The notes under the pieces were generated by a model. It saw only the letters and a list, made by a program, of their open reading frames with translations. It had not been told where the DNA came from and searched no databases. A stretch of 64,000 bases of DNA. Source: Strigamia acuminata (Eukaryota). Below, one piece after another: positions 1 through 23,031 of this stretch (within the stretch, counting starts at the first letter, position 1; every line of letters begins with the position of its first letter). The DNA lies in the NCBI GenBank assembly GCA_949358305.1, contig OX442314.1, positions 3,658,001 through 3,722,000 on the forward strand, in the 5' to 3' direction. The position numbers and the translations under genes are program-made.

Positions 1-352
1 AAATTAAACTTTGATCGTTTTCCCTATTATGCACATTTTTTGTTCCGAGTGGCAATGTCCGGTACGCGCGCGTCCGTCCCCTCCCTCTTTCTACCCGGAC
101 ACCAAGACCCGGTGGACGATAGGTTGTGTGGACACTCGAATATTCGGGGTTCGGTCCTTTGCATTTATTCATAATGAAGACTCTTCTTACGTACAACTTA
201 GCGTTATTTTTTTTCCCGCGTGTATTGTTTGCCGTCAACATGTTTAAAGTGCGTGCCGACTCGATCAGCGACCAAATAAGCGGAGTTGTAAACCCACGCC
301 AAATTGAACGACTGCGGAAATATCGTCGCCAGTCCACGCATGCTCCACTTGG

Positions 353-386
<34 letters not shown>

Positions 387-811
387 GCTCACCCACTCAC
401 TCGCTTTCTCTCGCTCTCACTCTCGCTCTCGCTCAAGCTCTCGTCGACACCACGTTGCAGTGAAGCACGAAGCTTCGCTTCAATTGTCGCCATTTTTAAA
501 TCGAGCTAGAGCCGGGCAAAGACAGTTTGCGTTTGCAGTTGCGTGTTTTGTTTCGTTTCGTTAAACGTGAGTGAGCGAGCGAGTGAACGAGCGAATGAGC
601 CAAGTGTTTTGTGGTATCATTTGTCAATTATTCCCGCCCAATTATGCACGTATTGTATCCGTGAGCGCGCGCAGAAAAAATTTGTTTGTTTGGTCATTGT
701 TGCTAACAGAAAATGAAGCTCAATTTAATAACCCATTTGTTTTTGTTTTTTTTGTTTTTTTTTCTTTTTCTTTTGATTTTATCTATCGCGTTTTTTTCGT
801 TTTCAGAGACC

Positions 812-1498
812 ATGATGACAGGAACATGGAAGGTGAAAGGGGAAGGGGAAACATCGTCCATCTCGACGCCCGTTCTCCGTGCGACGCGGACTAGAACCAC
901 ATCGCCGTCGTCGACTGCCGCTATCGCGTCGGTACCGCTCGATCCCGCTTTGTCCAAGCGTCCAGGCAGGCAGAAAAGGGGTAAACTGACGCTGATCAAG
1001 AGGGTACGCGCCACGTCTTGGGTTTTATTTATTTGCTTATTCTCTTTTTTTTTTTTTTTTCTCCCTTTCCCTTTCCAGTCGCGAAGAGAGACATCATTGC
1101 CGCCGCCGTCTTCACCTTCGGTGCTGCGGGAAGAGAGATTGGCAACAAGGGTCGAGGCGGTGATAACAGAAAAAATGGAGAATGTGGTGAAGAATGTGGT
1201 GAAGAATGTGGTGGAGAATGTGGCGGAGAATGTGGTGGAGAAGGTTATGGCGAAGCGAATGGAGAAGGTGTTGGCGGAGCAACTGGACAAAGTGGTTGCG
1301 GAGCGAATGGAGAAAGCGGCGAGATGGCGGGAAAAGAAGACGAAGACGTTGTGCGTGTTGAAGTCGGTGGGGAAGAAGCTAGAGGCGGTGCAGGCGGAGG
1401 TGAAGGAAATGGAGATGGACATGGTGGACATGATGGAGGAGGAAGATGGCTGTGGTTACGAAGGACTCGATGATAACGGTGATGAAAAGGAGTGGTAG
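812..1498 (+). CDS. Unknown protein (~203 aa): Ser/Thr/Arg-rich N-terminus, coiled-coil and acidic C-terminus; exons 812-1003, 1079-1498
   Basis: Acceptor TTTCAG ends at 806 before the ATG. A 75-nt GT..CCAG intron with poly-T (1004-1078) accounts for the Phe-rich stretch in ORF 713..1498. The second exon is purine-rich with ENVV/KNVV repeats. Confidence 0.65.
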   Translation: MMTGTWKVKGEGETSSISTPVLRATRTRTTSPSSTAAIASVPLDPALSKRPGRQKRGKLTLIKRVRATSWVLFICLFSFFFFFLPFPFQSRRETSLPPPSSPSVLREERLATRVEAVITEKMENVVKNVVKNVVENVAENVVEKVMAKRMEKVLAEQLDKVVAERMEKAARWREKKTKTLCVLKSVGKKLEAVQAEVKEMEMDMVDMMEEEDGCGYEGLDDNGDEKEW

Positions 1499-3744
1499 GG
1501 AGAAGGGGTGATGGGCCCTGGAGACGATGGTTACGATGTGACCGACAGTGACCACAACCAAGATTCTATCAAATAAATAGATAAATAAATTGACAAGTGT
1601 ACTCATAATTGTTGTATAGATTCTTTCGATCGAATAAACATTGTTTTAATATAGTTGTTGTCACGGTTCATACTTTGGCGAAAGCATGTCTGGCGATGGC
1701 AAGGGGCGCACGAGTGGCTACTCGCATGTCGTCCCCTGGGACATGCAGACTCGCTCTCGGACCTCAGGACTCATATTGTCGTCTGGCTCGCGTAGACAGC
1801 GTAGACAGCGATGGGGCAAGAAGTCTGGGAGATAAAGTTAAAATCTGAAACTGCAAATTTTTCACAAAACATTTGTTTCAATCGGTCCCAACGACGATAA
1901 TCTAATTAACAGTTGGAGCGCAAACCACGAAACCGATTCGACGATTGTGGGATTAAACTTTCATTGTCTTCCATGGGTATTTTTTATTCCACAGGGTGTC
2001 CCACGCGCGCGTGTCTACTCCTTTCTCTTTTCTCCGTCCGGGGACCCATTTCCAATCAAACTTTTTTTGTCCGGCGCCCAAAAGCCCGGACAGATCCACG
2101 AAATCCGCAGCGAAATCACGAGCTTGGGGTCGGCGTATAGGTCGCACGCATCTCCCGAGGATTAAATATATAAACAATTAAACTAGTGTTTTTGCACAAT
2201 TATTTGGAACAAACAATCGCTATAACCAAACAATACCAACGCCGTGAAAGCGTACGGGAGCGCGTATCTGAACATCCCGGCACCAATGTACCACCATGAA
2301 CGCGACACCCTTAACGATACGCGCGTTTAAATGTGACCCAATGCGCGATAAGACACGTGACGCATCATTTTCACCACGTATTGTGACATTTACGAAATTT
2401 ACGGTATTTACGGGACGAGTGAAGGAATCTAATCAACTCGATCTTATTTTAGAACAAGTTATTGGGGGCTGCCAATGCTGGCTGCCCGTATTCTGCGTGG
2501 CGAGAAGATAGGACCCCGTCCTTTTTGCGCGCCAATACCCTCGGAATGTTTGTGGTGGAGTGGTCCCTACTCTGAAGTAAGCGTGTCTGGTCTCGATCGA
2601 CCTAGAGGCGCTTGCAAATCCACCGAACGCAATGACACAAACTCACGTCGAAAGCGATGGCGCGAGACGCCGGAAAGACAAAATTAAAATATGAAACGAC
2701 GGATATTTTGCAAAACTCTTATTCTAGTCGGTCACTGCGAAGGTAATCTTAGTGACGACCGAAGTACGGGGGTAGATTTTATTCTGTTTTGTGTCTGTCT
2801 GGTACCGATCACCCACCCATCACCCACCCGTCTCCGATCATCGGGCACCTATGAGCGATAAACGCTCCCCTCCACGCTTGGCATGTCGCGCCTCGACAGT
2901 TCGCGGATCGAACCTGAATTCGAATCCGAATTTTGCGTTCTCTTTATCGTTTCAACGTTACGAGGGTTTCTTTTTATCAAAAACGATTACATTTTCAATT
3001 CTCGTCGGTAATTAACTGCGTTCCGGGCACTTTGCGGACGTTTATCCACGTTGACAAACATCATCGTCGACGCCCAATTCGAAAACCCGTGTCACACTCA
3101 CCCGCATCGCATCACGCGCGTCATCGCGTGTAGGAACGCGCGTATCGAAAACAACGTTGTGGTAGCTTGGATTTATTTTGGAACAATTTGTCGGGGCTGT
3201 CGGCGCGCATCGGTCGCCAACTGCCCCGTGTTCTCCGACGAACCCACTTTGGAGTATATTTCGACGAACCAGGGAGTGTTCGTGGCGGAGCAGAACAACC
3301 GTATCAAATCGATTCAGGAAATTTCGACCGAAACCCTCGGATCTCCATGATGGCTCGAAGCGAACGAATTCAAAGTGTCTGCAAACTCGTCGAACGCGAT
3401 TATACAAACTCGCATCGCTTACGATGGTGCAACGTGTACCGCGAGTTGAAATTTAAATCGTAAACCGATCGGAGCGTTCGCGATCTTCGTTTCGGACAAC
3501 ACCCAGTTCTATAATCTAATTAATCGTTGGGACACTCGACGTGGAATCGGTTCCACCGTCGATAAATCAATTTCTATATTTCGAGGATTTTTATTTAACT
3601 CCGCGCGAGCGCCTGTGTGATGTAATTTCTCACAACCGCCACGCCATCTGACGTAACCCGTGTCTCATTTGCATCCAAATCAAGTTCAGACACGATACAA
3701 GACTGTTTTCCGCGTCTCGTTGGCGTTCCTCGCAACATTGAACC

Positions 3745-4288
3745 ATGTTCCAGGTAATTCCAGAAACAGATACGAATTGTTTCGTATAATTTTTAATCTA
3801 AAACTTCTCTTATTCAGCCGAAACCGCTTGAACCCACGAACGAACATCCCTTGCTCAAGGTGAAGATAGGGAATCTCGCGCGTAATGCCCTGGTAATCGA
3901 GTGGTCGCGCTTCTGCGCCATCGACGAACGTTTATTCGAAGAAACGGGCTACCCTCGGGACAGTATCCGCGAACTAGACGACGACGACGATAGACACCGG
4001 TACCTAAAAAACATCGTTGGTGACCATTTCCAAATAATTGGACAGATCAAGATGAACGTCGAGTGGGTGAATCGAGGCACCGAAACCAACTTCATCGTCG
4101 TGACGAAAGAAAGAACTCTCGTCTTGGGGATGCGTTTCCTTTGGGACTCGAATATGTCTTGCGCGCGGTTTGATCGATTCTTCAAAGACCGTAAACTTGG
4201 CGTCACCATCCCATTCGAGTATGGATTTGTTCCATGGACAAATTTGTACTTTGTCGAATATCCAGATAAAATGTACAAGTGTCAATAA
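3745..4288 (+). CDS. Retropepsin/DDI1-like aspartic-protease-fold protein lacking the D-[ST]-G motif (~159 aa); exons 3745-3753, 3818-4288
   Basis: ATG TTC CAG|GTAATT..TTCAG|CCG joins in frame to ORF 3851..4288. The pattern PLLKVKIG-x5-ALV..., IIGQIKMNV, NFIVV, LVLGMRFL follows the retropepsin layout, but ALVIEWS replaces ALVDSGA. AATAAA overlaps the stop. Confidence 0.6.
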
Positions 4289-5960
4289 ATGGCAATCCTA
4301 TGTGTGAATGGGGTAAAAAATGTGGGAAAAAAATGTTATACAAATAAATAACTGTCGTTTTCGCGTAACTTTTTCGGCGTTATTCCACCATATAATCGTC
4401 GCTTCAATGTATCGTTGTTTCATCGTTTCGTTTTATTCCGTTTTATTTGTTTATTTGTTTTTATTTTTATTTTTATTTATTTATTTATTTTATTTTATTT
4501 TTTTTTTTTTTTTATAACATTCTGCAAACTGTAAAAACTGTAAAAACTTTAAATATAGATATTTCAGTGAACAGCGAGTTTGTTTTTATTTTAGACTAGA
4601 TGGGATACCTGGGTCGAAACGAATTAGGTCGAAACGGGATTTCGACTTTAGTCATTTCGACCTTAGTATGGAATCCCGGGTGCTCATAGTATTCGAAAAT
4701 TAAGTAAAGTAAAGTAAAGTTTAGTCATCTTCTTTGGATATTTTTTTTACTCCGTTTGGCGTCTTGCGCGCGCGCTTGTTTGCTCCCTTCTCCCTTCTCC
4801 GCCTCGAATTTCGTCCCCGGTCGGTCGTTTTCACCCGACACCCAAAAGTCCAATCCCGACGAACGGATCCACGAATTCCGTCGTGAAATCGCGAACACGT
4901 CGTCAACGCACAGGCCACGCGCGTATCACGAGGAACAAATAAATAAACAATTAAATGGGTGTTTTTGCACAATTATTTGAAATAAACACGCTTTATAGGT
5001 GTGTCTGTCTGTGGGCTTATTTTGGAACAAGTTGTTGGGGCTGCCGACACTCGTCGGTGCCAGCTGCCCCGCATTCACCGTAGGTGAGGCGCTCGTTGCC
5101 GCAATGGTCGCCGCAATGGTCGCCGGAATGTTCGTGGTGGAGCAGAACACCCGTGGGTGGGAAATACCGTTTCAAATCGATTCAGGAAATTTCGACCGAA
5201 ACCCTCGGATCTCCATGATGGCTCGAAGCGAACGAATTCAAAGTGTATGCAAACTCGTCGAACGCGATTATACAAACTCGCATCGTCTACGATGGTGCAA
5301 CGTGTACTGCGAGTTGAAATTAAAATGGTAAACCGATCGGGGCGTTCGCGATCTTCGACTCAGACGGCACCCAATTCGATAATCTAATTAATCGTTGGGG
5401 CACTCGTCGTGGAATTAGTTCCACTGTCGATAAATCGATTTATATATTTCAAGGACTTTTATTCAACTCCGCTCGAGCGTTTGTGCGCAGGACTTTGTAC
5501 CTGGTCACGTGGCCTGTAATGTAATTTCCCAGAACCGCCACGCCACCCGACGTAAGCCGTGCCCTTCGATGGACGCCAAAGTGTCCATTCGATGCGGATT
5601 TTTGCGTTTCCCGCGTTAAAAGGTGTCCTATAAATTCCGAAACCAAGTTAATCTTGATTTACTTGTCTACGTGGATCTCCCCATATATTTTGTTTTCCAA
5701 TTTCAATGTGGGAAAGTTTGTCGGTTGCAATTTTTCTCGCGCGCACGGCAATCACGAAAAAATCTCCGACGGTAACGCACTCTGACGGTAATTGTTTTAA
5801 ATTAAAAAAAAAAAAAATTAGATAGATAGATAGATAGATAGATAGGATAAAAATTAAAACAAAATAAAGAAGGGTTGAATTTCTCGGACCATCATCATTG
5901 TCGCCCAGCAGTCAGTCAGTCTCTTTCTTTCCTTTTTTCTGCACAAAGCAAACGTAAGAT

Positions 5961-6038
5961 CGCGGAAGCGAGACTCGAACCCAGAGTCCACGGCTCCATG
6001 CGGCAGGTAGTCCTGCCCACTCGACCACTCTGGGTCGA
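5961..6038 (-). ncRNA. tRNA-derived / Pol III type-2 promoter element (SINE head or small RNA)
   Basis: A-box TGGTCGAGTGG (6027-6017) and B-box GGTTCGAGTC (5981-5972). Stems CCCAGAGT/ACTCTGGG and GGCAGG-ACTA-CCTGCC. No canonical cloverleaf. Confidence 0.55.
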
Positions 6039-6348
6039 TTATAAATTGTGCTAAAATATAGAAAAGAAGAGAAACAGATAAATAAATAAAATAAATAAAA
6101 TAAAGACGTATATTTAATCACCCGATGAGATGTTTTTTTTACAATGAGAAACAAAATATACGCAATATAAACAAACAATACGAGACAATGAGATGGGGGA
6201 TTGTTGTTTTTATCCCATAAGAGTTGTGTCACATCTTTGACAATTGAAAAAAAAAAAAAATAAATGAATAAATAAAATTAAAAACAAAAACAAAAACTAA
6301 ATCAATCAAACAAACAAACAAACGAGAGTGGGAATAAACCGTCTCCTC

Positions 6349-6939
6349 TTATAATTCCATCGAAAGATCGGAACCACCAATTGCCTCTTCAGCGCCTTCG
6401 TCATCATCGTCGTCAACGACATCCTCTATCCAACCCATCGTTCCCTCCATCGCCTTCCACCATTTTTCCTCTGCTTCTTCAAATGTTTTCTCAAATTCCT
6501 CCATCGTCGCCTTCACCATTTTCTTGAGTCTTTGTTCCGTCCTGTCTATCAACTCCTCAATTCTCTCCTCTAGTCCCTCCATCATTTTTTCGACCCTTTC
6601 CTCCGTCGCCGCCATTGCCGTCTCCTGGACCTTCGTCTGTCTTCGACCGAGCGACTGGAGAAAGAGAGAAAAGAACGAATAAATATAAAAAAAAAATAAA
6701 AAAAAAAAAAAGGTCAAATAAAAAAGACAAAAGAGTAAATATCGGAATGGGACACATACCCCCTTGATCTTCGTGGGATCATTAGTTTTTCGCTCGCGTG
6801 CATCATGCACGGAACTACTGGCGGCGCTTAAGTTTGGCGTGTGGCTCCACGCCTCCATGAAGTCGATGCGTTCCAAAAGGACGACGGGTGACAGATGCGA
6901 CTTTGTGGACGGCTTTTCTCCTCTCTTTCCTTTTTCCAT
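6349..6939 (-). CDS. Unknown coiled-coil/acidic protein (~161 aa); exons 6939-6760, 6654-6349
   Basis: 105-nt GTATGT..CCAG intron after ...IKG. The last exon is Glu/Lys/Met-rich and helical with an acidic tail. Same architecture as 812-1498. Confidence 0.65.
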   Translation of the reverse strand: MEKGKRGEKPSTKSHLSPVVLLERIDFMEAWSHTPNLSAASSSVHDARERKTNDPTKIKGVCVPFRYLLFCLFYLTFFFFLFFFYIYSFFSLFLQSLGRRQTKVQETAMAATEERVEKMMEGLEERIEELIDRTEQRLKKMVKATMEEFEKTFEEAEEKWWKAMEGTMGWIEDVVDDDDDEGAEEAIGGSDLSMEL

Positions 6940-7111
6940 ATTTTCTTCGATGTGAAAAAAAAGATAAAAATTAAAATCGCAACAAAAAGAACCAAAACGT
7001 GGGACGTCGAATAAAACATCCGCGCACATATTGTTCGCGCAAGTCTACGCGCGTACATGTACGTGTTGGACGTGGTACATTTGATGCCTACCGCGGAACA
7101 ATGCGAGAAAA

Positions 7112-7229
7112 CACGAGAAAATACGAAGTTCTCGTATTTTCTCGGTTTTACTTCCATTTGGTTAATTCTTACCTTTGGTTTCAATACAATTTATCTTATT
7201 TCAGAAGTCTGCGAGACACATATAAAAAG

Positions 7230-7261
<32 letters not shown>

Positions 7262-7457
7262 GTTTATTTCTAATTAAATGAGAAAAATCTTATATATAGG
7301 CTTAACCCACCATGCAATAAGAAACAGACGAAAAAATCTTCTTTTTATTCGTGTCTTGTAGTTTTCTGAAATGAGATAAATTGCATTGAAACGTAACATA
7401 AGAATTAATCAAATGAAAGCAAAACCGAGAAAAAGTGAGAATCTTGTATTTTCTCGT
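7112..7457. repeat. Diverged inverted repeat (~130-bp arms, MITE-like)
   Basis: 7112-7240 (..TTTTCTCGGTTTTACTTCCATTTGGTTAATTCTTA..) is the reverse complement, with mismatches, of 7330-7457 (..TAAGAATTAATCAAATGAAAGCAAAACCGAGAAAA..). Confidence 0.7.
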
Positions 7458-8006
7458 TGTACGACAAAGTCGGTTCGCGTTACACGAGTTTTTCAAAGTA
7501 CCGTGGCCCTGGTACACGATACCGTCTCGGTTTTAAAACGGCACCGCGGTCCCGACGCTCACCTGCCGCAAAAAGCAATGCAGTCCAGGGCCGCGAACCG
7601 CGTGTAAAAACGCCAACTGACGAGTGTTTACCGGGAAAATGGTTAATTTACCTCTAATCGTTCCACTTGTTCACTTGTTCACGACACGGGGTCCACACTA
7701 CTGATGGCGAGCGCGCGAGTGATTCGACGCGGCATCTGGCGACAACCATGGAATCCCGCGCGTGATGCGACGTTGTTTGTTTATTTTTGTCTATTTTATT
7801 TATTTATTTGTTTATTTATATATTTATGTTTATTTGTTTATTCATCTATTTGTTTCACGATGCTTTCAAATTTTTATTTTTTTGTAACTCCGCTCACCAA
7901 GCAGCGTCGTTATCGAAATCCGCCATACCTGACCGCTGATTCCGCGCCGCCACGTGCTTCGCTGCTGAGCAAGTTGAAAGTATTTATGCCGTTTATCTAT
8001 TTATCA

Positions 8007-8039
<33 letters not shown>

Positions 8040-8302
8040 CCAATCAACCAATTGACAACGACAACAATTGTTTCAACAATCCGACCATTCGTCCGCTTGT
8101 GTCTAAACGAGTGGAAGCGTGGAGAGGCGCGGAATTCGTCGCCATATTCTCGCTTGCCAGAAATGAAAAGAGAATAATTCGGTTTATCATTGTTTGATTG
8201 ATCTGTGGTTTTATTCACCTTCCTTTCCTTTTCATTGATTGTGTTTTGCTGTTCAATTCTCGTTTGTATTTAATTTACGGTAATCTAATTTTTACATTTC
8301 AG

Positions 8303-9350
8303 ATGGAGAACGGAAAGAACGTCATCTGGGGTGAAGTGCGCCCGGGCACGAGGTGAGAGTGGTTGGTCGATCGATTGGTTTTATTTATTCGACACATTTT
8401 ATTTTATTTCATTTTATTTTTATTTTATTTTTAAGGGGCCCATCGCGATTGTCGTTTGGGAAAAAGAACGTGAATAACCCCATCATTTGGGGTGAAATGC
8501 GCCCGGGCACGAGGTGAGAGTGGTTGGTCGATCGATTGGTTTTATTTATTCGACACATTTTATTTTATTTCATTTTATTTTTATTTTATTTTTAAGGGGC
8601 CCATCGCGATTGTCGTTTGGGAAAAAGAACGTGAATAACCCCATCATTTGGGGTGAAATGCGCCCGGGCACAAGGTGAGAGTGATTGGTCGATCGATTGG
8701 TTTTATTTATTTGACACTTTTTATTTCATTCTATTTTATTTTTATTTTATTTTTAAGGGGTTCGTCGCGATCGCCACCTTCGACGAGGTCGCCGCAGACC
8801 ATCTATGTGCGGCCCGGGGAATTTGGTAATAACATATTCTTCGGGCCGAGGCGCTATGTGCCAGAGTGAGTAAAGCAATTTATGGTCGATTCGTCGGTCG
8901 CGATTTGATTAATCATTTTTTTTTTTTTCCATAGTAACTTACCATGGTTGCCACCTATGCGTGCCAATAATTTCCAATGCAACAGGCGCCACGCGCGGGA
9001 TCGCCCAACACCACCGACGCATGGGTGGTCGGATATCCCAAGATCCACCCGAAACTATGTGTTTCAATTCTGCACAACTTGCTACCAGTTTGGTGGTTGC
9101 AACCCGTTCGTCACCAGTTACCAGTCACCAGTCACCCGCGACCGCCACCAGTTCGTCGCGCTATATCTACCTGTCCAGTTAGTTAATTAATTATTCTTTT
9201 TATCATTCTTTTTTTTTTTTTTTGTTTGTTTGTTTGTTTGTTTGTTTGTTTGTTTGTTTGTTTGTTTGTTTGATATATATATATATACATATATTTTTTT
9301 TTCTTCCTCTTAGTGGGACATCGTTATCAAACGTAGCGCCATCGGCGTAA
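8303..9350 (+). CDS. Unknown microexon gene; exons 8303-8352, 8436-8513, 8597-8674, 8758-8865, 8935-9105, 9314-9350 (last intron uncertain)
   Basis: All introns are GT-AG and phase 2, and the frame stays open: MENGKNVIWGEVRPGTR-GPSRLSFGKKNVNNPIIWGEMRPGTR(x2)-GSSRSPP...FCTTCYQFGGCNP. The exon+intron unit is a 161-bp tandem repeat. Confidence 0.6.
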
Positions 9351-9517
9351 TTTTTCATTTTTTATTGTATTTTGTTCGTTTGTGGTTTATAATTTAAATA
9401 AAAATTGAATTTGAGATAAGTGGCCACGATTGATTGGGTTTATTTGATCGCAAAAAAAAAAAAAATTTAATTCGAATGAATCTATCGGTGTTAAAAACGA
9501 CACGACCGGTTTGTTAG

Positions 9518-10075
9518 TTAGCCGATTGGTGAACAATTTGCGAAACACGCGCGACACGTGGGGGCGTATTTCTCGGCACCCCCTATCACCACGACGTCTT
9601 CTTCGCCCGACGTCCGCTTCGTGAACGCGGCTTCCCCTCGACACCGGTAGCACGTTGCCTTCAGCTTCACGATGTGCTCTGATTTCGGGAGCAAATCGCA
9701 GACTTGACCGAACGGGTTCAACTTGAAATCCCCATCGAGGGCCGCGATTACCACAGTCTTTCCTTTCTCTGCCATTTCTTGACAGAATTGTACCAAGTCC
9801 TCGAAAAACTGGCCCTCGTCAATCCCGATAATCCCGAAATTTTCGGATTGTCTTCGGGCTTCCGCGAGGTTTTCGACGGCGCGCGCCGCTCTCGATTTTC
9901 CGTCACGAGCGACGATTTCTCCGGGAATGTGGCGGTTGTCGATTTTGGGCTTCAATAACAACGCTTCTTCTCCTTCTAGGCGCCTCAAGAGTTCAGTTGT
10001 TTTCCCTGCAAACATCGGGCCCACTATTAACTGGATATTGCCTCGTGGTCGATCCTCGATGGCCGACGTCGACAT
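9518..10075 (-). CDS. tk: Thymidine kinase, type II (TK1/poxvirus-like), intronless, 185 aa
   Basis: P-loop GPMFAGKTTEL, IGIDEGQFF, AALDGDF..PF, zinc site CYRC...CRAC, lasso IGGAEKY. Confidence 0.96.
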   Translation of the reverse strand: MSTSAIEDRPRGNIQLIVGPMFAGKTTELLRRLEGEEALLLKPKIDNRHIPGEIVARDGKSRAARAVENLAEARRQSENFGIIGIDEGQFFEDLVQFCQEMAEKGKTVVIAALDGDFKLNPFGQVCDLLPKSEHIVKLKATCYRCRGEAAFTKRTSGEEDVVVIGGAEKYAPTCRACFANCSPIG

Positions 10076-12494
10076 CTCGTCTTGTTGCGTCTACCATCGA
10101 GGAAAAAGAGAAAGAATTTAAACGAATAAATGAAAAACGAAAAACTGACAAAATCGTGAGTCCGACTGCAAAACTAAAATTGGATAGAGATCGAGAACAA
10201 AATGGCGGTGATAGTGGTGTAACCACGGGGATTCCCGCCCGTGCTCGCGCATCGACCCGTTCTGGTTCATTTAGTTAGTTGGTCGGTCGGTTTAATTGAC
10301 GAGTCGGTCAAATTGTTGGAGATTCTTCCCCTTTTTCTATTTTGAAAATTGACTAGGTTTGCTTACCGTGCAAACGAAACTCGATATAGCGAATGAACCA
10401 ATGCGTACAAGTGCGCGAAGCAAAGCGCGGTATGGTAGGAAAGCTTTAGCCCGTCGCTCGCTGCAAAGACGCGAGAATACGACGCGACACTCGGTGACAC
10501 AAATTAGAAATTAAGAAAAAAAAATAAATAAATAAATAAAGAAATAAAAAAAAAAAAAATAAAGAAATAAAAAATAAATAAATAAATAAATAAATAAAGA
10601 GAGAGAGAGGGATTCTTTCCCATTCTCTTCTCTGCGTTTTCTCTTTTCCTCTTCGTTTCTTCGCGCGCATCCACGAGAGAAGCACACATCGGTTTGGGAT
10701 TCGAAAGATTCGAAAGATTCATGGGATTCGGATGGGATTAGGAAGCCATTGCCAGAGATTCGGTCGAACGTCGTCCCCCTCGCATTGTTTTCGCCACTGG
10801 CTGTGTAGCTTATTTTTGATTTGTTATTGTGACTGACCAGAAGGCCAGTCTGAGACCGAGAGGGGCGTGCAGCGTGCAAATGGGACGCATATAGGCACTG
10901 GCGACAGAAGAACTCGGGTACCGCGCCACTCGGTGGGTACTGTGCCGCCCGACCGAGCGGCGACGGCCCCTCGCTCTGCTCTCGGTCTGAAGGCTTTCGC
11001 AAAATGCAGCGGACGCGGTGATTAGAACTCGCGTCGACTCCGACGGGACGTCAACTCTGGAAGGTAAAATTAAAATATGAAACGGCGGATATTTTACGAA
11101 ACTTTTGTTCCAGTCGGTTGCTACGAAGATAATCTCGTTAATCATTGGAATACGAACCGCGGAACCGGTTCCAAGATCCGAAATTTAAACTTTAATCGTC
11201 CGCTCGTTGTCGATCGCCAGGCACCTATAAGTGATAAACGCGTCCTTTTCATTTTCTTGTCGCGTCTCGGGAGTTTGTGGATCTATAACCTGGCCTAATC
11301 TGACCTAATTCGAATCTGAGTTTGGATCTGAATTCTGCGTTTGCTTTATCGTTTCAACATTATGAGAGTTTCCTTTTATTAAACAATTATATTTTTAATT
11401 CTACTTGCTATTTAACTGCGTCCCGGTGCGTTGCCATAAGCACCGGACACCTTCGGACATTTATCCACGTTGGTGAACATTATTATCGATGCCGGTGTCA
11501 AAAATCCATGTCGCGCTTACATACATCGCACCTCGCATATTATCGCGCGTGGGAATGCGTTCACGCGTGTGCATGGCAAACAAAGACACGCTCATGCGAG
11601 CACATTGTCGAGGACTTCGCTCACGATCGCGCACTGACACCAGAACGTGTTGCATCAAAATATTGAAATTTTCTACGACCAGATGCCGAATCTGTCATGT
11701 GCAAAGAGAGTGTGTGTAAACGAACGGACAAATAAATAAATAAATAAATAGATAAACCAAGTGTTTTTCATAACTGTTTGTTTGTTTGTACCGGCGGAAC
11801 GTTGTGATGTCGATGTGAGAGTTTATTTTGGAAGAATTTGTTGGGACTGTCGACGCTCGTCGGTGCCAACTGCCCCGGCTGACCAACGACTGAACAATAG
11901 AGTGGTTGCGCAACCCGAATGCAGACTTTTGTGACCGAAACCCCCCGGATTTCCGCGAGGGCTCGAATCAGTCCCGGTTGGTCTGAAGGTGTTAGTAGAT
12001 CCATCGGATGCAGTGACCGAAATTCAATGGGTGACGAACGACGATAGAGGGGGAGGATCGAATTACTCCCCGGCAATCATCGTCGAAATGGAGAACCCAA
12101 TTCGCTTATTCACTCGACAATTTGTGTCGTTTTACGAGCTTTATTGTTGATGTTTCGCGCGTGCACGTGTGTGTCTGTGTGTGGCATTTTACAACGGAGT
12201 GGCATCGACGTGTCCATTGGTTGACTCGAGTTCCAACCGTCCCCAACGCCTCGTAAAAATCGACACCGATTTTATGACTTTGAACGACTTTATCGCTAAC
12301 ATTTCCATCTGGTTCCCCGTAACGACGTTTCGACCATTGCTCCCCCCACACTCCAATTCAAAATTTAATAAGAAATTGTCAAACTTTTCAAATTCTATGA
12401 TAAAAGTTGAGTGTTTTTATTGTTTACAAAATAAAAACGAAAAATAGAAAAATAAAATAAAAAAAGATTCACAATCGACTCGTCACATCGCCGA

Positions 12495-13196
12495 TTACGC
12501 GCCTGGTTGTGGGTCACTGAGGAAGAGATCAAATTGAATAAACTAAGTGAACAAACTGATGGACGGGCGGACAAATTGAAACGTTGAACCGAATTAATTA
12601 CCTCGACGCCGGACGCCCTGGCAACATCGGTTCGGTGGCCGCGAAACGCGCTAGCATCCTGGCGCGCCCGCGGGATTGACTTGAAAAATAGAAAATAAAA
12701 TAAAATAAATATAAATAAATAAATCAATTCGAATCAAACCAACCAATCGGTGAAACAAAACGAAACAAAAACAAAAACAAAACGTTGAATCGAATTAACT
12801 CACATCGGCATCGGACGTCCCGGTCCCATCAACTGGGCGCCCGCGAAGCGAACAAACAGTACGGAACGTCCGCGAGGATGGCTTAAAAAATAAATAAATA
12901 AATAAATAAATAAATAAATGAATAAATAAATCAAACGAGACGTTTGACCGAATTACATCGGTTCCGGAGTCGCGCGCTGGAATGGCGCAACCCGCATGAT
13001 GGGTCGAATGTGACCGGGTTCGGTCCACTGCCACGATGACGACTGGGGCGGATCAATTGGCTGACAACTGAATAAACAAAGAAATAAAGAAATGAAGAAA
13101 CAGATAAACGAACGATCGATCGAAACCGGTCGGTCGAATCTCTCACCTTGCATCATCGCCGTCGTTGTTGTGGTCGTTTTTCTCGTTTTTGTTCAT
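12495..13196 (-). CDS. Unknown Pro/Arg-rich microexon gene (~112 aa); exons 13196-13147, 13067-12957, 12881-12804, 12679-12602, 12516-12495
   Basis: Four GT-AG introns, all phase 2, give an open frame MNKNEKNDHNNDGDDASCQPIDPP...IHPRGRSVLFVRFAGAQLMGPGRPMP-IQSRGRARMLARFAATEPMLPGRPAS-SDPQPGA*. The two 78-nt exons are homologous to each other. Confidence 0.6.
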
Positions 13197-14308
13197 CGTC
13201 TGGAACATAGAAATTAAATTAAAGTCGAATGCAAAGGAAAATAAAATAACGGCTAAGAAAAAATAAAAAATTTCAAGTCACGAGTCTGTCAAATGAGCGA
13301 GCGAGCGGTGCCCGACCGAACCAATGCAGGCGTTCGTGTTTGCACGCGCGTGTTAATTGATACGTTGTCGAGAGAGGCGTAGAGATAATCGAGGGTTGTT
13401 TTTTTTTTCAATTTGTCGATCGATTGACTGATAAATGTGACGGTAGAACGGTCAACTACTCACTTTTTGGAAGATGGAAACACGACGTTGTCTGTCCCGC
13501 GCGTGATCACTATCGATGCATAGAGCGACACCAAGTGACATAATCCGGAAACATGGCGGCTGTCTGTCTCCATCCTCTCGGCACACGGTTCCACGCGGCG
13601 GGTATCTCCGTCCACTCGACCAATCGTCGTATTCGTTGTTATCCTTTTTCCTTTTTTTTTTTCTTTTTTTTTCTTTCTTTTTTTTTCTTTTTTTCTTTTT
13701 TAGGCGAGTAAATAAAACTGACTGAAATAAAAATTCCCATCCATCCACCCATTTCGTTTTGTTTTTTAACGTGACGATTCTGAGTAATTACGTCACACCG
13801 TGTACCCCAACCATTAATCAGATTATCACGATAGATGTCGCGTGAAATGAGATTGTGAACGCTTAAACTGGTCTATGGTTTAAATTCCATTCCGCGATGC
13901 ACGGCGCGCCATCGTAAAGGCTTTTATTCAACTAGACACGAACGTTTAGCGTGTTGGATCAAACGTCCGGTCACGCGACCTGTGATGTAATTACTCGGAA
14001 CCACTGCGCAGCCCGGTGGAACTCGTGTCCTTTAATGGATACCAAAATGTTCGTCCGATGCGATCACTTGACGTTTCCCGCGTTAAAAAGTGACCCAATA
14101 AATTCCGGAACCAGATTAATCATGTTTTATCTATCTATATGCGTCTAACCGTATATTTTGTTTTTTTTAATTTTAACGTGGAAAAGTTCGTTAATCATAA
14201 TATTCGACACCTACATGTCAAACTTGGAAAATCCGCGGCGGTGGCGCATTCTGGCGACAATCCGCGAAACCCCGTGAATAGCTTGTTTTCGACTTGTCAT
14301 TTTTATAA

Positions 14309-14341
<33 letters not shown>

Positions 14342-14441
14342 GTTATTATTATTATTATTATTATTTAATTAGAAGTGTGACCCGTCACGTGTTACCACCG
14401 CCATTGTTATCACCGGGTGTCGTGTCGGTTCATTCGTCAAA

Positions 14442-15395
14442 ATGGACGCACCATGCGCTTCGTCCACAGAGGTGAGTTGTTAAATCTCTGTCTATGAATT
14501 GTTATTTTGTCAATTGGCCGTATTCACATTTTGCGTGCACAAAACGCACGTATACGCCATGTTGCCCGCGTGAACATCTGAATTGTCGTTGTTTTCATCG
14601 CTAAACGAAACGATCAATTTGATGAATGTACAAATGAGTTTAATGAATTTTATAAAATTAAGCGAACGAGCGAGATTAACAAATAAATAAACAAATGGGT
14701 GTTTGTTTGGAGATAATTCATTTCGTACAACGCGCTATCAATCAATCAATTACCCGCTATACGGTGAAACTGTAACGCTCCTCTCTCGTTCGTGTTTCGG
14801 TCTCCTTTCTCTCCTCCTCTCTTCGCGTTCGTATCTCAATTTAATTTATTTTAATTTAATTTAATTTAATTTATTTATTTATTTATTTCTCTCTTTACAG
14901 ATGTCAATCATCGCCGGGAATGAGGCACCGACCCGACCACAGTCGCCGCAATCGCAACCATCGTCACCAAGAACGCCGCAGACGCCGAAGCGCCCTTTTG
15001 AGACGGGGAATACGACGCCAGTTAAAGGGGTATCCCGTTGAGATTCCTATTATTTATTCTTTTTTTCGTTTATTTTTTTTCCCCCTTTCCTTTTCCAGTC
15101 GTCCACCGCTTCCACTCCGCGTGCGCCGACGGGTAGGTTGAAGACGGTGGATCTTATACTTCGAAGAGTGACGAAGGAGGAGGAACGAGAGGAGGAGGAG
15201 CGAAAGAAGGGACGCAACAGAGACGATTCCATGTGGATCGAGACGCTCCCAGATGGAGATGTTCTTTTGTCGGGTTCAGTGGTGAGCGCGTTAGTCCGTG
15301 TGGGTGTGGTAAGAGTCATACCAGAAGAAAACGAAGGAGACGGTGACGAAGCTCAGAGAAAGAATCGAGAGTCTGGCAAAGAAGACGCGGGATAA
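14442..15395 (+). CDS. Unknown low-complexity/charged protein (~151 aa); exons 14442-14471, 14901-15029, 15099-15395
   Basis: GTGAGT..TTACAG and GTATCC..TTCCAG introns. Open frame MDAPCASSTE-MSIIAG...TPVKG-SSTAST...RLKTVDLILRRV. The second junction mirrors the genes at 812 and 6939. Confidence 0.55.
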
Positions 15396-15546
15396 GAAAA
15401 AATTGATCGTGTATTTGTAATAATGATAACAATAAAGATGATTAATGTGGATTTTTTTTTTTTTTTTTTTGTAAAAAAAAAATAAAAGCAAATGGGGAAG
15501 AGTCGGACAATGCAAATTATGAGAAAAAAATAAAATTAAATAAAAA

Positions 15547-16126
15547 CTAATGTTCATTGACGCCACCTCCATCATTTCCGGCGGGCGCTTGGTAATCGTG
15601 TGCCTCCGCCCAATGAGTGACGAGATCCCCGGGAGAGGGCGTCTCCGCACAAAACGGACAGCGTCGCCCGTTGAGTCGGTGCACTCGTTTCAACGCCTAA
15701 GAAGAAAGGGGAAAAAATAAAAATACGAATTAGTTAACTAGTGTGTGAGTGAAGAGGATAATTGGACACTCACCGATGCCAGACAGACGGGCTCGCGCGA
15801 GAATTTTTTCAACAGCCCTCGGACGAAATCATTCGCGTCCTTGTGGATGTTGTGTCGCTGTCGCTGGTGGCGAAAGACGTCGACGCAGAAGAATCCGTCC
15901 GGTCCTGAGGCACGTGGGGCGGGGGGGGGGGGGGAAGAAAAAGAAAAAAAAAATTAAAATAAAATTAAAAAATATTTATGTATATAAAATAAATAAAACA
16001 TATGGAATAAAAGATATAAAATAATAAGTAAATAAATAAACGTTTCTTACTATCGGGGTGTTTATCATCGCATAGAGCGCAGGAGTATGACCTGCCGCCA
16101 CCCTCCTCTTGTGGTGCTTCCGCCAT
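15547..16126 (-). CDS. Small two-finger C2H2-type zinc-finger protein (~118 aa); exons 16126-16051, 15904-15774, 15696-15547
   Basis: Spliced translation (GTAAG..CAG, GTGAGT..TAG): MAEAPQ..YSCALCDDKHPDRPDGFFCVDVFRHQRQRH...RRCPFCAETPSPGDLVTHWAEAH..*. Not present as a single ORF in the track. Confidence 0.75.
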
Positions 16127-16168
16127 TTTCCTTTTGTTTGTGAGACGAGTAAACAACTGAAAATAAAT

Positions 16169-16224
<56 letters not shown>

Positions 16225-17099
16225 TGATTGTGGTCGTGGGCGTGGTCCATTGACCGAGAAATCACACAAAGCATCAAACTTACTTACCAACGAACACGAG
16301 GTGGCAGTGAGGATCAGACGGAAGATGAAACGCGCGCGTTTGATATAAGCTGCCGAACCAAAGTGTGTGTATGTCGTGAGCGGCTGATGTGACATCTGGT
16401 GGCAGTCCGAGAACGATTTAAGTTTGAACTATGGAGCGTCGGCAAATGAACGGGTCTCTCTCGTTGGCAATCCTCGTTGTTCCGACGAATCCTGCTATCG
16501 CCGTCTTTGTGGTCCTCGTCACGGTCGTCGTTTTTATTTAACTCGAAACGAACGTTAATACTAAGTTTCCAATGTGCGTAGACGCGCGTGATTCGCGCGT
16601 GATTTGCGCGTTTTCCACATGTGGTGCCCCCGTCACGCGTGAATACAAAACGTCGACCCAATAAATTCCGAAATTGGGCTAATCTTGTTTTATTCGCCCA
16701 TGTGCGCTTACCCATATATTTTGTTTTTCAGTTTGTGGAAAAGTTCATTGCCTGTGGTTTTCGGCGCGTACATGGCAAACGCGGGAAAATTTGCGGTGGT
16801 AGCGCGCTTTGGTGGCAATAAAAAAAAAAAACACCATAATGTTAAAAATGGAAATCCCGTGCAGAAGCTTATTTTTGAACAAATTGTTTGGGGCTGCCGG
16901 TGCTTGTCGGCGCCAGCTGCCCCGTATTCTGTACAGAGAGACGTTCAAAAGAACATCTATTAACTCATACAGTAGAAAAACCACAGAAGTGAGTAAAACA
17001 ATCGCGGAAAACCAAAACCCTCCGGATTTCCGCGAGGGCCAGGATTGGTCTGGATTACTGGAATCACTCTCGAAGCCCGTCGAATGCGTTGATGGAGAT

Positions 17100-20000
17100 T
17101 CGCACCAACTACGACAGCGCGTGGCAACCGGAAGGTGAAATTAAAATATAAAACGGCGGATATTTTACAAAACTTTTGTATCGGTCGTTTGGTACAAAGA
17201 TAATGTGATTAACTATTGGAATACGAACCGCGAAACCGATACCACGATCCGAAATTTAAACTTTAATCGTCCACCCATTGTCGATCGCCAGACATCTATA
17301 AGCGATAGGTGCGCCCTTTTCATTTTCGTGTCGCTCCCCCAGAGTTTGTGGGTCTAACCTGACCTAATCTTACCCAATTCGAATCTGAATTTGAATCTAA
17401 ATTTTGCGTTTTTATTATCGTTTCAATATTATACGAGTTTCTTTTTATTAAACAATTACATTTTCAATTCTCGTTGGTAGTTAATTGCGCCCTGGTGCGT
17501 TGCCATAAACACCGGACACTTTGTGGACATATATCCACGTTGACGGACATCAGCATCGCATCACACGCATTATCGCGCGCGCGAACGCGCTCGTGCGAGT
17601 ATGTACGCCGTCAGGGACTTCGCTTCGCGGTCGCGCATCGACGTCGAAACATGCCGTATCGGTGTGCGGACGTTTTCTATGCCCACAACGAACCGAATCT
17701 GTCGGACGCGAGTAGAATGCGCGTCACGAGGTCTAGACTAACGGATGAGTGTCGATGTGGGAGCTTATTTTTGGGACGAGTCGTCGGGGTTGCCGCCGCC
17801 TTCGCCACCGCTCAACGAGCCCAACTGTCACTATTCGTCGGGATGGATGCGTTTTGTTCCCGACTTATTTATCTATTTATTAATTTTTTTCTTTTTTTTT
17901 TGACCGGCCCGAAGGCCAGTCTGAGACCGAGAGGCAGGCGGGAGACGCGTATCGCCGTTGGATCCAACAGCATCATAGAGTGCAAAGAGTTAACCGCTGA
18001 CCTCGAAAGGAAACTAGCAAACAAGCTGTACGATCGATTGGTCTAAAAATGCTCACAAAACCCATCGAGTGCAGTGATATAAACTCGCGTCGACTACGTT
18101 GGTGCAGCGTGTATTGCGAGATGAAATTTAAATCGTAAACCAATTGAGACGTTCACGATCTTGTTTCACGCAACATCTACCACGAAAATCTAATTAATGA
18201 CTGGATCACATGACACAAAATTAATTCTACGACCGGGAAATCGATTTCTATTTTTTAAAGACTTTTATTTAACTCGGCGCGAGATTCTACCTACAAACGA
18301 TAAACGCATCCTTTTTATTTTCTTGTTGTCGTCTCGAGAGTCTGTGGATCTACAACCTGGCCTAATCTGACCTAATTCAAATCTAAATTTGAATCTGAAT
18401 TTTGCGTTTTCTTTATTGTTTCAACATTATACGAGTTTCCTTTTGTTAAACAATTATGTTTTGAATTTTCGTAAGTGGTTGGTTAATTGCGTCCCGGTGC
18501 GTTGCCATAAACACAAAGCACTCTGCGGACATTTATCCACGTTGCCGGACATTATTATCGACGCCCGCGTCGAAAGACCGTGTCGAGCTCATCGGCATCG
18601 CATCACACGCAATATCGCGCGCGCGAACGCGCTTGTGCGAGTATGTACGTCGTCGGGGACTCGGCTTCGCGGTCGCGCATCGACGTCGAAACATGCCGTA
18701 TCGGTGTGCGGATGTTTTCTATGCCCACAACGAACCGAATCTGTCGGACGCGAGTAGAATGCACGTCAAGAGGTTTAGACTAACGGATGAGTGTCGATGT
18801 GGGAGCTTATTTTTGGGACGAGTCGTCGGGGTTGCCGCTGCCACCACCGCCACCGTCCAGCGACCCCAACCGCCTTTATTCGCCGACTCGTTTATTTATT
18901 TATTTATTTATTTATTTGTTTATTTTTTTTGACCGGCCCGAAGGCCAGTCTGAGACCGAGAGAGCGAGGAAGGCGTTCAAGAAGGACGCCTACAGCCACT
19001 GGAAGCGAGAACCCGGCTACCACGCCGCCCGGCGGGTACTGAGCCGCTCGACCGAGCGGCGGGCCCGAGTTCCGCTGGCGATCTGAAAGTGTTGGCAAAA
19101 CCCATCGAACGTGTTGAGGAAGACTCCGATCGACTGGGACGGCGCGAGACCCCCGGGAGATGGAAATAAAATACGAAACAACGGATTCCCTACAAATTTT
19201 TTTTCCCGGTAAATTACGACGAAGATAATCTAATTAACGGTTAAAGTACGAACCGCAGAGTCGGTGCCACGACCGGAGAATTAAAACTTTAATCGTCTTT
19301 CTTTTTCGGGTGATATTTTTTTTATCCCGTATCGATCGCTACATCGGACACGGGTAGAATGCACGCGACCGCGCGCACATTTAAATAAACGAACGGGTGC
19401 CGATACGAGAGCTTATTTTTTGGGACGAGTCGTCGGGGTTGCCGTCGCCGCCGTCGCTCAACGACCCCAGCCGCATCTATTCGCCGGGAAGGATACGTTC
19501 TATTTTCGGATTTATTTATTTATTTATTTATTTTGACCGGCCCGAAGGCCAGTCTGAGAGACACGGGATGAACGCGCACAAATGCCACATCATCGACCGG
19601 ACGCTGAAGCATCGACCGTTTACTCGGTCGAGGAAATTTTAAACTATATAACCATCGACCGGTCAGTTGGGGAGGCGCGCCCGGTACTATACGAGACGGT
19701 CCGCCCCGATCTGAAAACGCTCGCCGAACCCGCAGAACGCGTTCGGTGAGACTCGCGTCGACTACGACGACGCGAGACTCCCGGAAAGTGAAAATAAAAT
19801 ACGAAACGATTGATTTTCTGTAAAAATTTTATTATGACGAGTTGCGACGAAGATAACCTAATTATCGGTTAAAGCACGGACCGCAAAGTCGGTCCCACGA
19901 CCGAAGAATTAAAATTTTAATCGTCTTTCTTTTTTCGTGTGATTTTTTTTTACTCCGCACCGATCGCCACGTCGGACACGGGTAGAATGCACGCAACCGC

Positions 20001-20761
20001 ACGCGCGCTGCGAGGTTTAGACGGACGAAGAAATGCCGGTGCGGGAGCTTATTTTCGGGGCGAGCCGTCGGGGCTGCCGCTGCCGTCGCCGCTCAACGAC
20101 ACCATTTGCCCCTATTCTCGTCGGGACGGGCGCGTTCTATTTCCGATTTATTTGTTTCTTCATTTATTTATTATTTTGACCGGCCCGAAGGCCAGTCTGA
20201 GACCGAGACCGCTTAGATCATTTTGGGCGGGTAGAAGTCCTACCGCACCATCGGCCGACGATCGGACGGAGAAGCGCGCATACCGCACCATCGACCGATG
20301 GTCGGATAGAGGCGCGCATGTACTCGAGTCTCGATCTGAAAAACGTCCGCAAAGTCTATTGGATGCGATGACCGAGACTCGCGTCGACTGCGACGGTACA
20401 TGGTCCCCGGGAAATGATTTAAAAATGTAAAACGACTGTTATTTTGTAAAACTTTTATTCGAATCTGCCACAACGAAGATAAAATGATTAACGGTTGGAA
20501 GGCGAGCCGCGAAACCAGTTCTACGACGGGGGAATTAAAATTTTAACCGTTTTTCTTTTTCGGGTGATTTTTTTTTACTCCGCACCGATCGCCACGCCGG
20601 ACACGGGTAGAATGCACGCGACCGCACGCGCGCTGCGAGGTTTAGACGGACGAAGGAATGCTGGTGCGGGAGCTTATTTCCGGGGCGAGTCGTCGGGGCT
20701 GTCGTTGCTGTCGCCACCGCCGCCGCTCAGCGACCCCAGTTGCCCCAATTTTACGGCCAAT

Positions 20762-20800
<39 letters not shown>

Positions 20801-21260
20801 TTTTGACCGGCCCGAAGGCCAGTCTGAGAGACACGGGATGAACGCGCACAAATGCCACATCATCGACCGGACGCTGAAGCATCGACCGTTTACTCGGTCG
20901 AGGAAATTTTAAACTATACAACCATCGACCGGTCAGTTGGGGAGGCGCGCCCGGTACTATACGAGACGGTCCGCCCCGATCTGAAAACGCTCGCCGAACC
21001 CGCAGAACGCGTTGGGTGAGACTCGCGTCGACTGCGACGACGCGAGACTCCCGGAAAGTGAAAATAAAATACGAAACGATTGATTTTCTGTAAAAATTTT
21101 ATTATGACGAGTTGCAACGAAGATAACCTAATTAATGACTGGAGCACACGGCGCGAAATTAATCCTATGATCGGGAAATGCATTTATATTTTTTAAAGAC
21201 TCTGGTTTGACCAGGCACGAACGTTTATGTACGAGATCCAACGTCCGATCACGTGACATG
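17100..21260. repeat. Tandem array of diverged ~600-1030-bp modules, each with an invariant hairpin
   Basis: GACCGGCCCGAAGGCCAGTC at 17902, 18931, 19535, 20178 and 20805. Shared blocks include GAGCTTATTTT.GGG.CGAG, ACTCGCGTCGACT and GATAA.CTAATTA. 19513-19860 is near-identical to 20783-21130. Confidence 0.85.
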
Positions 21261-21665
21261 TGATATATTTCGCAAAACCACCACGCCGTTTCTCCAAATT
21301 AGGTTTTCACGAAACTCGATTCTATTTTTACCCACGTGGTCACGTGCCCTTCCCGATATCAAAATCGCGTTTTAGCGAAACCCGAAGTTTCGTTTTTAAT
21401 CGGCTGTTTTTGTTGGACACGAAGAAGCGTTATAGCGCGATCGCGCTAAGCGAGATTTGTAAAGTTGAGGATGCGTTACAACGCGTTTTCAAAAAACGGT
21501 TTGCCAAGAATGATAAAACACGCGCGATCGTGCGGATTGTACGAATAGGTGAAATCCGCAGAATCCGCCACGAGACTGCGAACAGGGGGTCAAGGTATAG
21601 GCCGCCGTAATGTTAAATATAGGGTCCCTTTCGCACTCCGCGAAATCCGCATGCGCGCCATAGGG

Positions 21666-23031
21666 TTAGGTACTACTCTTTTCAAAGCAGTGTGACATGC
21701 AATGCCATTCAACCTTGAAATTCGTAAAACTTCATCTAAAAGAGTGGATCCAGCTTCCCATTCTCCATCGAATAAAGCGGGTTTGATGTGATTCCATCTA
21801 ATAGTTCTTTCATCAACTAGATCGTGAGTCCAGTTGTTGGCAGTGTATTGTGCAATTTTTTGTCGTAATGCTATGTCAGCATTATCTGCAGTAGCGTCAG
21901 ATCGATCAGAAGATCGACGATCAGCTAATAATCGATCAATTTTCTCAGCAGTGTAATAATGAGTATTACGCCGAGAAGAATGGCCTCGATGTCGACGTCG
22001 ATGAGATCGATGTCGATTATCGCGTTCTTGTTGCGCATTCACATCAGAATCCGACCTTGAATCAGATTGTGAATTTGAAGGCGTGTTGAAATGTGGTGTT
22101 TCAGGTGGGTCGGGTGGGTCGCTGTCATCATCTGGCGGTCGACGTCCACCTCCAGGTGGTCCATCTCCGTGTCCATCTGGATTTCCTCCATCTGGTGGAT
22201 TTCTTCTATGCTGACCCCCACCTGGCGGGCTTTCATGTCCGTCGGGTGGTTCGCGTGCTGGATTCATTTCTCGTCGACTTCTTTTCGACGAATCTTGCTG
22301 TTGAGCCAGTGGTATCGTTCGGGCAACGTGAATGCCTGTTTCATGTTGCCTATTTCGATCATCTACCATTCCCAACAGTCGGTCACTATTGTGAAAAATC
22401 GGGTTTCGATTACCAGGGAGCGGATTGCGATCAGCTCTCCGTTCCTCAGAATCCGAAGGACGTTTTCTTTTTGAGCGATGGCGACGACGCGAACGATGGT
22501 CGTCATCACTCGATAATCCAGATTGGCTACTTAACTCTGAAACAACAGAAATTGTTATTGTTTCGGGAGTCAAAATAGGAACAGTTGGCGCAGCCATTTC
22601 TGGTTGCACCAATTGGTCAGTATAATTTCTTGCTTGCAAACGATCTTTCATCTCTGCAAGCTCTTCTTGAGCGCGCAACAAATCAGCTCGGAGAATTTCA
22701 TTCTCATTTATTTGATTTTGCGATTCTTCTGGTTGCAATCGCTTAGCAGGGCCGCTAGATTTGACTTGTCCGCTCGTACTGGGTTGATCCAGTGAGTGGA
22801 AAATCTCATCTTCACGCTTAGCTATTTTGCTTTCGCGAGTACGCTGTGTTTTAGCACGTGTGTCTAATTCAGCAGCATATCTCACTAGTTGATTATGATT
22901 GCGTTGGTAGTGATCTGCCAAATCAATCAACTCTTTATTTTTCTGCTCTAACTTACTTTTGGTAAGTTCGAGCTGTCTTCGCGCCTCTTGGTGTGAGCGA
23001 ATTGAAAGTTCATTTCTAGTATTCATCTTAG
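21666..23031 (-). pseudogene. Gag-like gene, middle fragment (interrupted on both sides by transposon ends)
   Basis: ORF 21590..23026 has a coiled coil, a Gly/Pro/Asp low-complexity region, then KPALFDGEW..ISRLNG resembling the start of a Ty3/gypsy capsid domain. The last ~25 aa are read-through into the transposon end. Confidence 0.65.

Follow-up and report, generated by a model that had tools for sequence, protein, structure and literature searches.

We analyzed a 64,000-nucleotide stretch of the Strigamia acuminata genome (contig OX442314.1, positions 3,658,001 to 3,722,000 of the forward strand; the window, with all positions counted from its first letter). Its first 21,665 bases are the candidate arm of a piggyBac-type transposon. 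They end in a leftward-pointing terminus that interrupts a repeated, gag-like open reading frame (ORF). The features that define this boundary and link it to the interior are the following.

21370 to 21665, minus strand: transposon end with a CCCT terminus and the subterminal ATGCGGATTTC motif, of a family shared with the ends at 23032 and 41073.
21666 to 21669, plus strand: TTAG target 4-mer, with its duplicate expected left of the window.
21670 to 23031, minus strand: middle piece of a multi-copy gag-like ORF that served as landing site; this end interrupts it at 21669, and a 32-kb element does so at 23031.
1799 to 21194, plus strand: twelve copies of a module of about 210 bp, starting at 1799, 2608, 3372, 5240, 10990, 13793 (inverted), 17061, 18047, 19086, 19714, 20340 and 20984.
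16300 to 21290, no strand assigned: array of larger duplicated units without a gene model, the youngest pair (19510 to 19864 and 20780 to 21134) being 98.9% identical.
2092 to 2170, minus strand: decayed subterminal copy of the end, in the orientation of the live end and without its outer ~60 bp (profile E 0.009; score 43 against a maximum of 32 in 500 shuffles).
4867 to 4925, minus strand: second decayed subterminal copy (profile E 0.08; score 37 against a maximum of 31 in 500 shuffles).

Read inward from 21665, the minus strand is CCCTATGGCGCG, with TTAG lying just outside at 21666 to 21669. The 19-nt end motif occurs three times in the 64 kb, at 21647 to 21665 on the minus strand, at 23032 and at 41073, where chance predicts a mean of 0.01. 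The end at 21665 is 88.5% identical to that at 23032 over 183 bp and 77% identical to that at 41073 over 302 bp. CCYT ends and TTAA targets define piggyBac (PMC10175614), and TTAG (PMC10813416) as well as ATAT and ATAA (PMC5381638) are described as rare piggyBac-like targets. Matching the CCY(T) start, the terminus reads CCCT at 21665 and CCTT at the sister ends. The 11-nt motif ATGCGGATTTC is present in six copies in the window, one per left or right end, and so provides the subterminal direct or palindromic repeats common to both ends of piggyBac elements. Telomere targeting was considered and rejected, as the sequence TAACC results from any TTAA followed by an end beginning with CC.

The sister element at 23032 to 55283 is a composite, with left ends at 23032 (TTAG) and 41073 (TTAA) and right ends at 37656 (ATAA), 41018 (ATAT) and 55283 (TTAG). 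Seven public contigs (four from run X1, three from run X3) pass directly from 23031 into the sequence of 55288, which reveals an empty site and shows that the TTAG flanking the 32-kb element is a true duplication.

To view the junction at 21669, we mapped contigs from runs X1, X2 and X3 onto 20830 to 23255; the counts rest on 24 of 2551 contig pieces. The three runs come from one organism and two studies and hold 64-74% of the sampled words of 13000 to 22500. An assembly artefact is unlikely given this coverage, although the run with the highest share may come from the source sample. No X6 contig covered 20830 to 23255, and none from X3 covered 23179 to 23255, possibly a filter effect. Three contigs (two in X2, one in X3) follow the window up to exactly 21669 and there switch to different sequence; the ORF thus continues past this point in its sister copies. 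Record 17 of X3, from the second study (635 nt, 2 differences, depth 1763), covers 21035 to 21668 and ends at the target, after TTA. Its depth resembles that of the main repeated-ORF contigs (1366-2289); these figures have no single-copy baseline and are not equivalent to copy number. Because this contig stops at the target at such a depth, we infer that the 21665 end is multi-copy with varied flanks.

The first-pass annotation had reported a leftward terminus of the same family as the 32-kb element, cutting a gag-like ORF at TTAG, with the gag C-terminus never reappearing. The terminus and the cut are borne out by the identity between the ends and by the three continuing contigs. The C-terminus does not reappear either: the ORF continuation is absent from the window, and the interior contains no gag or pol family. 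The name gag fared less well. The ORF found no match in family or homology searches, nor among longer proteins (this last being weak evidence), and its identity as gag is unconfirmed. Farther along the window, the interval 55938 to 56399 holds a TG...CA-bounded stretch beside a primer-site-like motif, upstream of the start of the gag-like ORF. The motif lies just upstream of that start and resembles a tRNA-Pro primer-binding site. The stretch is likely the 5′ long terminal repeat (LTR).

What connects the interior to this end is the ~210-bp module. A profile finds 14 copies in total: the twelve between 1799 and 21194, 11 of which share one orientation, and one in each sister left end, with none in 55-64 kb. 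One copy lies 471-681 bp inside the 21665 end; each sister left end has its homolog 596-801 bp in, with the same orientation relative to the terminus. The module is thus shared with the sister elements, which yielded no gene family, and is therefore a component of the transposon end. Judged by their sequence, this end-linked module and the two decayed end copies tie the interior to the end family. The interior module copies are 47-90% identical to one another (median 62%, 66 pairs), compared with 98.9% for the youngest larger duplicate; duplication is therefore both old and continuing. Internal repeats cover about 46% of the first 21.7 kb, in 64 direct and 6 inverted pairs.

The family right end reads like CCTTTTCGCGG on the plus strand. 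No partner end was found in 1 to 21665: all three matches to the right-end motif fall within the 32-kb element, and the right-end profile returns nothing better than E 1.1 over this interval. At 14244 to 14270 the final 30 bp of the family right end are weakly matched (score 29 against a maximum of 28 in 500 shuffles), in the wrong orientation for a partner of 21665. Because the partner is missing, the insert would be longer than 21.6 kb. We propose that the 21.6 kb would be mobile as a single unit.

The interior also carries eight predicted genes and an Hsp90 fragment:

134 to 232, minus strand: Hsp90 middle-domain fragment of about 30 codons, inside the frame at 2 to 352 (Pfam HSP90 E 5e-5, below the curated cut-off).
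812 to 1498, plus strand: gene A, 203 aa, 2 exons, with a basic N-terminal part and a coiled-coil-like acidic C-terminal part; no significant family.
3745 to 4288, plus strand: spliced retropepsin-like gene, 159 aa, with ALVIEWS at the expected catalytic motif.
6349 to 6939, minus strand: gene B, 161 aa, 2 exons, with the intron context of A and C.
8303 to 9350, plus strand: microexon gene F, 197 aa, 6 exons, introns all phase 2, with a triplicated exon-intron unit.
9518 to 10075, minus strand: thymidine kinase (TK1 type), 185 aa, no introns in the coding region; P-loop, DEGQF and zinc-site cysteines present.
12495 to 13196, minus strand: microexon gene E, 112 aa, 5 exons, introns all phase 2, one exon duplicated.
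14442 to 15395, plus strand: gene C, a model of 151 aa and 3 exons.
15547 to 16126, minus strand: gene D, 118 aa, 3 exons, with two C2H2-like finger patterns (zf-Di19 E 0.0013 on the last exon, below the curated cut-off).

No stop interrupts any of the eight gene models, each of their 16 introns is of the GT-AG type, and exon GC content is 0.56 compared with 0.28 for introns. The low-complexity genes A, B and C have a common intron context. The first-pass annotation had described a gene-dense interior of at least eight small genes, rich in CpG and microsatellites, unlike 58.3-64 kb. The eight genes hold up as stop-free models, but they occupy 18% of the arm's bases, all within 0.8-16.1 kb, and 16.3-21.6 kb is repeat array without a model. 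The longest stop-free frame in the arm is 263 aa. Microsatellites of at least 16 nt number 22 in the interior and 0 in the rest of the window. The observed/expected CpG ratio is 1.63 in the interior, uniformly so across the 21.6 kb (1.54-1.72), against 0.73 in 58.3-61.4 kb; the contrast softens over the whole of 58.3-64 kb (1.16), and the 32-kb element is itself CpG-rich (1.50 in 23032 to 37657).

We collected stop-to-stop frames of at least 52 aa (n = 240) and scanned 238 of them with Pfam. Only the kinase and Hsp90 reach E 0.002; no transposase, viral core gene, gag or pol family appears. Thus neither the piggyBac DDD transposase nor the viral core genes that the first-pass annotation had proposed to look for were found in these frames of the visible arm. 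PHROGs matched only the kinase among 10 frames, and Rfam over 1 to 24000 gave no family and no tRNA was found. The Hsp90 fragment, which the first-pass annotation had not listed, has 26 matches of the Hsp90 family in the PDB (best E 4e-5) and is likely captured host sequence.

The thymidine kinase is full-length (Pfam E 1.2e-52) and at most 50% identical to the best 120 of 681 matches. It sits on a long branch (1.4, median 0.32) and is unplaced in two trees, grouping neither with arthropod kinases nor with a supported viral clade. The first tree kept 52 of 69 viral matches, leaving out those shorter than 141 residues, those with stops and exact duplicates; the second, and an approximately unbiased (AU) test, used a hand-picked set of 50 rows. 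Insects are thinly sampled among the kinases compared with this one, with one named insect. Its P-loop reads GPMFAGKTT, a variant shared by 6 of 120 protein matches and 4 of 59 viral matches.

Retropepsins carry the catalytic motif D-T/S-G, where the 159-aa protein has ALVIEWS. By language-model features this protein resembles retropepsins (atlas 0.94; all ten of its ten best matches in one clan), sharing 141-163 of 256 atlas features, which is below the 170 typical of the same family. It has no sequence relative, including among 1.84 billion representatives. Single-sequence fold models (predicted local distance difference test 40-48) gave no usable match, with none at E up to 0.001 and a best Z of 4.4. 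With the motif replaced, the protein is likely inactive.

Two smaller structures recur in the interior. An 8-bp hairpin, mostly with a UUCG loop and followed on the minus strand by an A-rich tail, is present in six copies at 10839, 17906, 18935, 19539, 20182 and 20809. The copy at 10839 keeps all its pairs through two one-sided changes, and folding z values are -2.0 to -3.6 for five of the six. We take the hairpin and tail to resemble a retroposon 3′ signal. Between genes B and F, an imperfect inverted repeat of 345 bp (75%) spans 7113 to 7457 and may be a small foldback insertion.

In the sister element, 23027 to 32250 is repeated at 41068 to 50304 with 98.7% identity, alongside 56-bp satellite arrays and a 4.8-kb palindrome at 30151 to 34930; Pfam found no family in its 7 longer non-satellite frames. 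At 23032 to 23106, contigs of X1, X2 and X3 match one another over the opening ~75 bp of the left end and differ beyond it, which suggests that a third element family shares the terminus of 23032. About 820 bp at 36419 to 37239, present in the first unit and absent from the second, are possibly a solo LTR. Beyond the element, an intronless 695-aa ORF at 61437 to 63524 (CpG ratio 1.49) resembles unnamed arthropod protein clusters (atlas 0.95, low recognition).

Taken together, we favor the reading that positions 1 to 21665 are probably one arm of a large, probably multi-copy cut-and-paste element of the piggyBac superfamily, with eight predicted small genes, inserted on TTAG in a repeated gag-like ORF. 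Several observations weigh against it. The other end, the second TTAG and a transposase are not seen in the window, and the target 4-mer of the 21665 element is visible on one side only. In the contigs where the ORF continues, the 4-mer at 21669 is one base off TTAG, and the empty target of this copy is not among them. Only 21035 to 21668 is physically joined to the end in an independent run; no contig among the 24 of 2551 pieces bridges the junction at 21669, and one may exist among the others. piggyBac elements have terminal inverted repeats of 12-19 bp, and the two ends of the 32-kb element agree at 8 of their first 12 bases, so it is the end motif and the target by themselves that assign the family to piggyBac. 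The gene models, predicted from sequence, score poorly on a crude splice-signal count (5 real, against a shuffled mean of 1.3 and a maximum of 5), and the proteins of genes A, B and C, compared with one another, give no significant match (best E about 0.1). Finally, the AU test does not reject placing the kinase in a cockroach-containing clade (p 0.27), and the kinase may be of host origin.

An alternative is that the arm comes from an endogenous large DNA virus whose integration uses piggyBac-type ends. It would be the end that carries the accessory genes, the core genes would lie left of the window and the modules would serve as origin-like repeats. Thymidine kinases are common in large DNA viruses (69 viral loci), and this one lacks coding introns, is long-branched, is not placed with arthropod kinases and carries a P-loop variant that occurs among both protein and viral matches. 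The interior's compact genes interspersed with dispersed repeats would also suit a virus. Moreover, crustacean endogenous nimaviruses are giant integrated arthropod elements that possess intron-bearing eukaryote-like genes and heat-shock-protein homologs, some with terminal inverted repeats and a DDE transposase, the latter in one lineage (PMC10871703). They use tyrosine recombinases or Ginger2, however, and have nimavirus core genes, none of which we see here; their targets are telomere repeats, 28S ribosomal DNA (rDNA) or AT repeats (PMC10871703), whereas the flank here is a coding ORF. Viral core genes are missing from the scanned frames, PHROGs recognized only the kinase among its 10, and neither the longest frame nor the coding share is what such an origin would predict. 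The module recurs in sister elements that have no gene family, the kinase joins no viral clade with support, and the end motif has 0 matches in metagenome and viral contigs. The interior genes are spliced, and Teratorn, the piggyBac-herpesvirus fusion of fish, is itself reported to lack a thymidine kinase in medaka (PMC5601938). We therefore regard a viral origin as unlikely. The more specific proposal, a first arthropod counterpart of Teratorn, in which a lineage of large DNA viruses became a transposon through piggyBac-type ends, with its accessory genes (kinase, dead protease, zinc fingers) in an arm of spliced genes and its ends borrowed by long satellites that are non-autonomous, is likewise unlikely. 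Of the choice between giant transposon and virus hybrid that the first-pass annotation had left open, the modules, decayed ends and linking contig support a large element that carries genes between piggyBac-type ends, but the hybrid finds no support in the visible part.

The interior might instead not be one unit. A short or one-ended element at 21665 could have caused an adjacent deletion or rearrangement, leaving 1-21 kb as a fixed nest of old family fragments among fast-evolving host genes. The missing partner end and second target, the age of the modules, the inner end copies without termini, the composite build of the 32-kb element from several ends and a kinase that may be the host's all fit this account. 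Independent insertions would hardly place 11 of 12 modules and both decayed ends in one orientation, though, nor is the uniform composition over 21.6 kb what a nest predicts. A run of host genes in which only the kinase and Hsp90 reach E 0.002 in the stop-to-stop Pfam scans, and whose protease-like protein has no relative, would be unusual, and the second study joins the end to interior sequence. We consider this quite unlikely. It is highly improbable that the LTR retroelement behind the gag-like ORF carries these genes as its cargo, with the DNA-transposon end incidental: a retropepsin-like gene does lie downstream of the ORF, but on the opposite strand, spliced and without the catalytic motif, and neither a reverse transcriptase nor an integrase nor a continuation of the ORF was found in the interior. 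The presence of introns on both strands and of modules derived from the end indicates a DNA element.

Among known systems, the large piggyBac-superfamily element that we favor is closest in layout to Pokey of Daphnia. Pokey has imperfect ends of 12 or 16 bp, a 5′ arm in which a 200-bp repeat is present 2-5 times along with host DNA that it acquired, and a length of up to 9.8 kb (PMC3849761). To judge here from the sister element, imperfect short terminal repeats and a TTAA-type target would be common to both, as would non-autonomous relatives. In each, one arm combines acquired DNA with several repeats of ~200 bp (here twelve modules with genes and the Hsp90 fragment), an analogy of layout and not a sequence comparison. 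Pokey's repeats derive from the rDNA spacer and its captured sequence is at most 3.6 kb (PMC3849761). The arm described here is at least 21.6 kb, more than twice as long, with twelve old repeats, eight predicted intact genes and no transposase in the visible part. Teratorn is alike in its CCYT ends, 4-bp target and very large gene-bearing interior, but has herpesvirus core genes and 18-bp inverted repeats and is reported only from teleosts (PMC5601938, PMC10175614, PMC6431247). Here, in contrast, a kinase and many introns are present, and polymerase, terminase and capsid were not found among the scanned frames. Ordinary piggyBac-like elements share the terminal C-C motif, subterminal direct or palindromic repeats and rare non-TTAA sites, but those surveyed measure 1.2-9.5 kb with one transposase ORF (PMC5381638, PMC10813416).

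A review of giant transposons names, in its available text, Teratorn as the sole natural giant with piggyBac ends (PMC6431247), and a survey of endogenous DNA viruses does not mention piggyBac in its main text (10.1101/2025.04.19.649669). We found no description of an element like this one in the literature searched, which lies outside Repbase and Dfam. The first-pass annotation had not recognized the element as one of a described kind. As regards architecture, calling it undescribed goes too far, since that of Pokey is similar, if far shorter.

How such an arm could arise and move can be outlined. A DDD transposase, either encoded beyond the left edge of the window or provided in trans, would bind the asymmetric ends through a common GCGGATTT-type subterminal motif, excise the unit and insert it at TTAA or TTAG. 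The module and the decayed ends suggest growth by expansion of end-proximal repeats and by capture. Repeated duplication and unequal recombination of the end-proximal region would have multiplied the ~210-bp module, and foreign DNA may have been trapped between its copies, as in the 5′ region of Pokey. The captured pieces (kinase, retroelement protease, Hsp90) and the small spliced genes would then have diverged and duplicated inside the element. More speculatively, the kinase would raise the supply of deoxythymidine monophosphate for the element's repair and copying.

Natural piggyBac-like elements stay below 10 kb in two surveys, and the larger known case is the virus fusion of fish. If our reading is correct, cargo-carrying giant transposons would have an animal counterpart in this element of more than 21 kb, which has a 32-kb sister and keeps spliced genes of its own along with an enzyme of nucleotide salvage. 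Dated repeats and decayed ends would then allow the growth of such elements to be traced. A transposase for it, should one be found, would be a natural enzyme that handles large cargo and tolerates TTAG.

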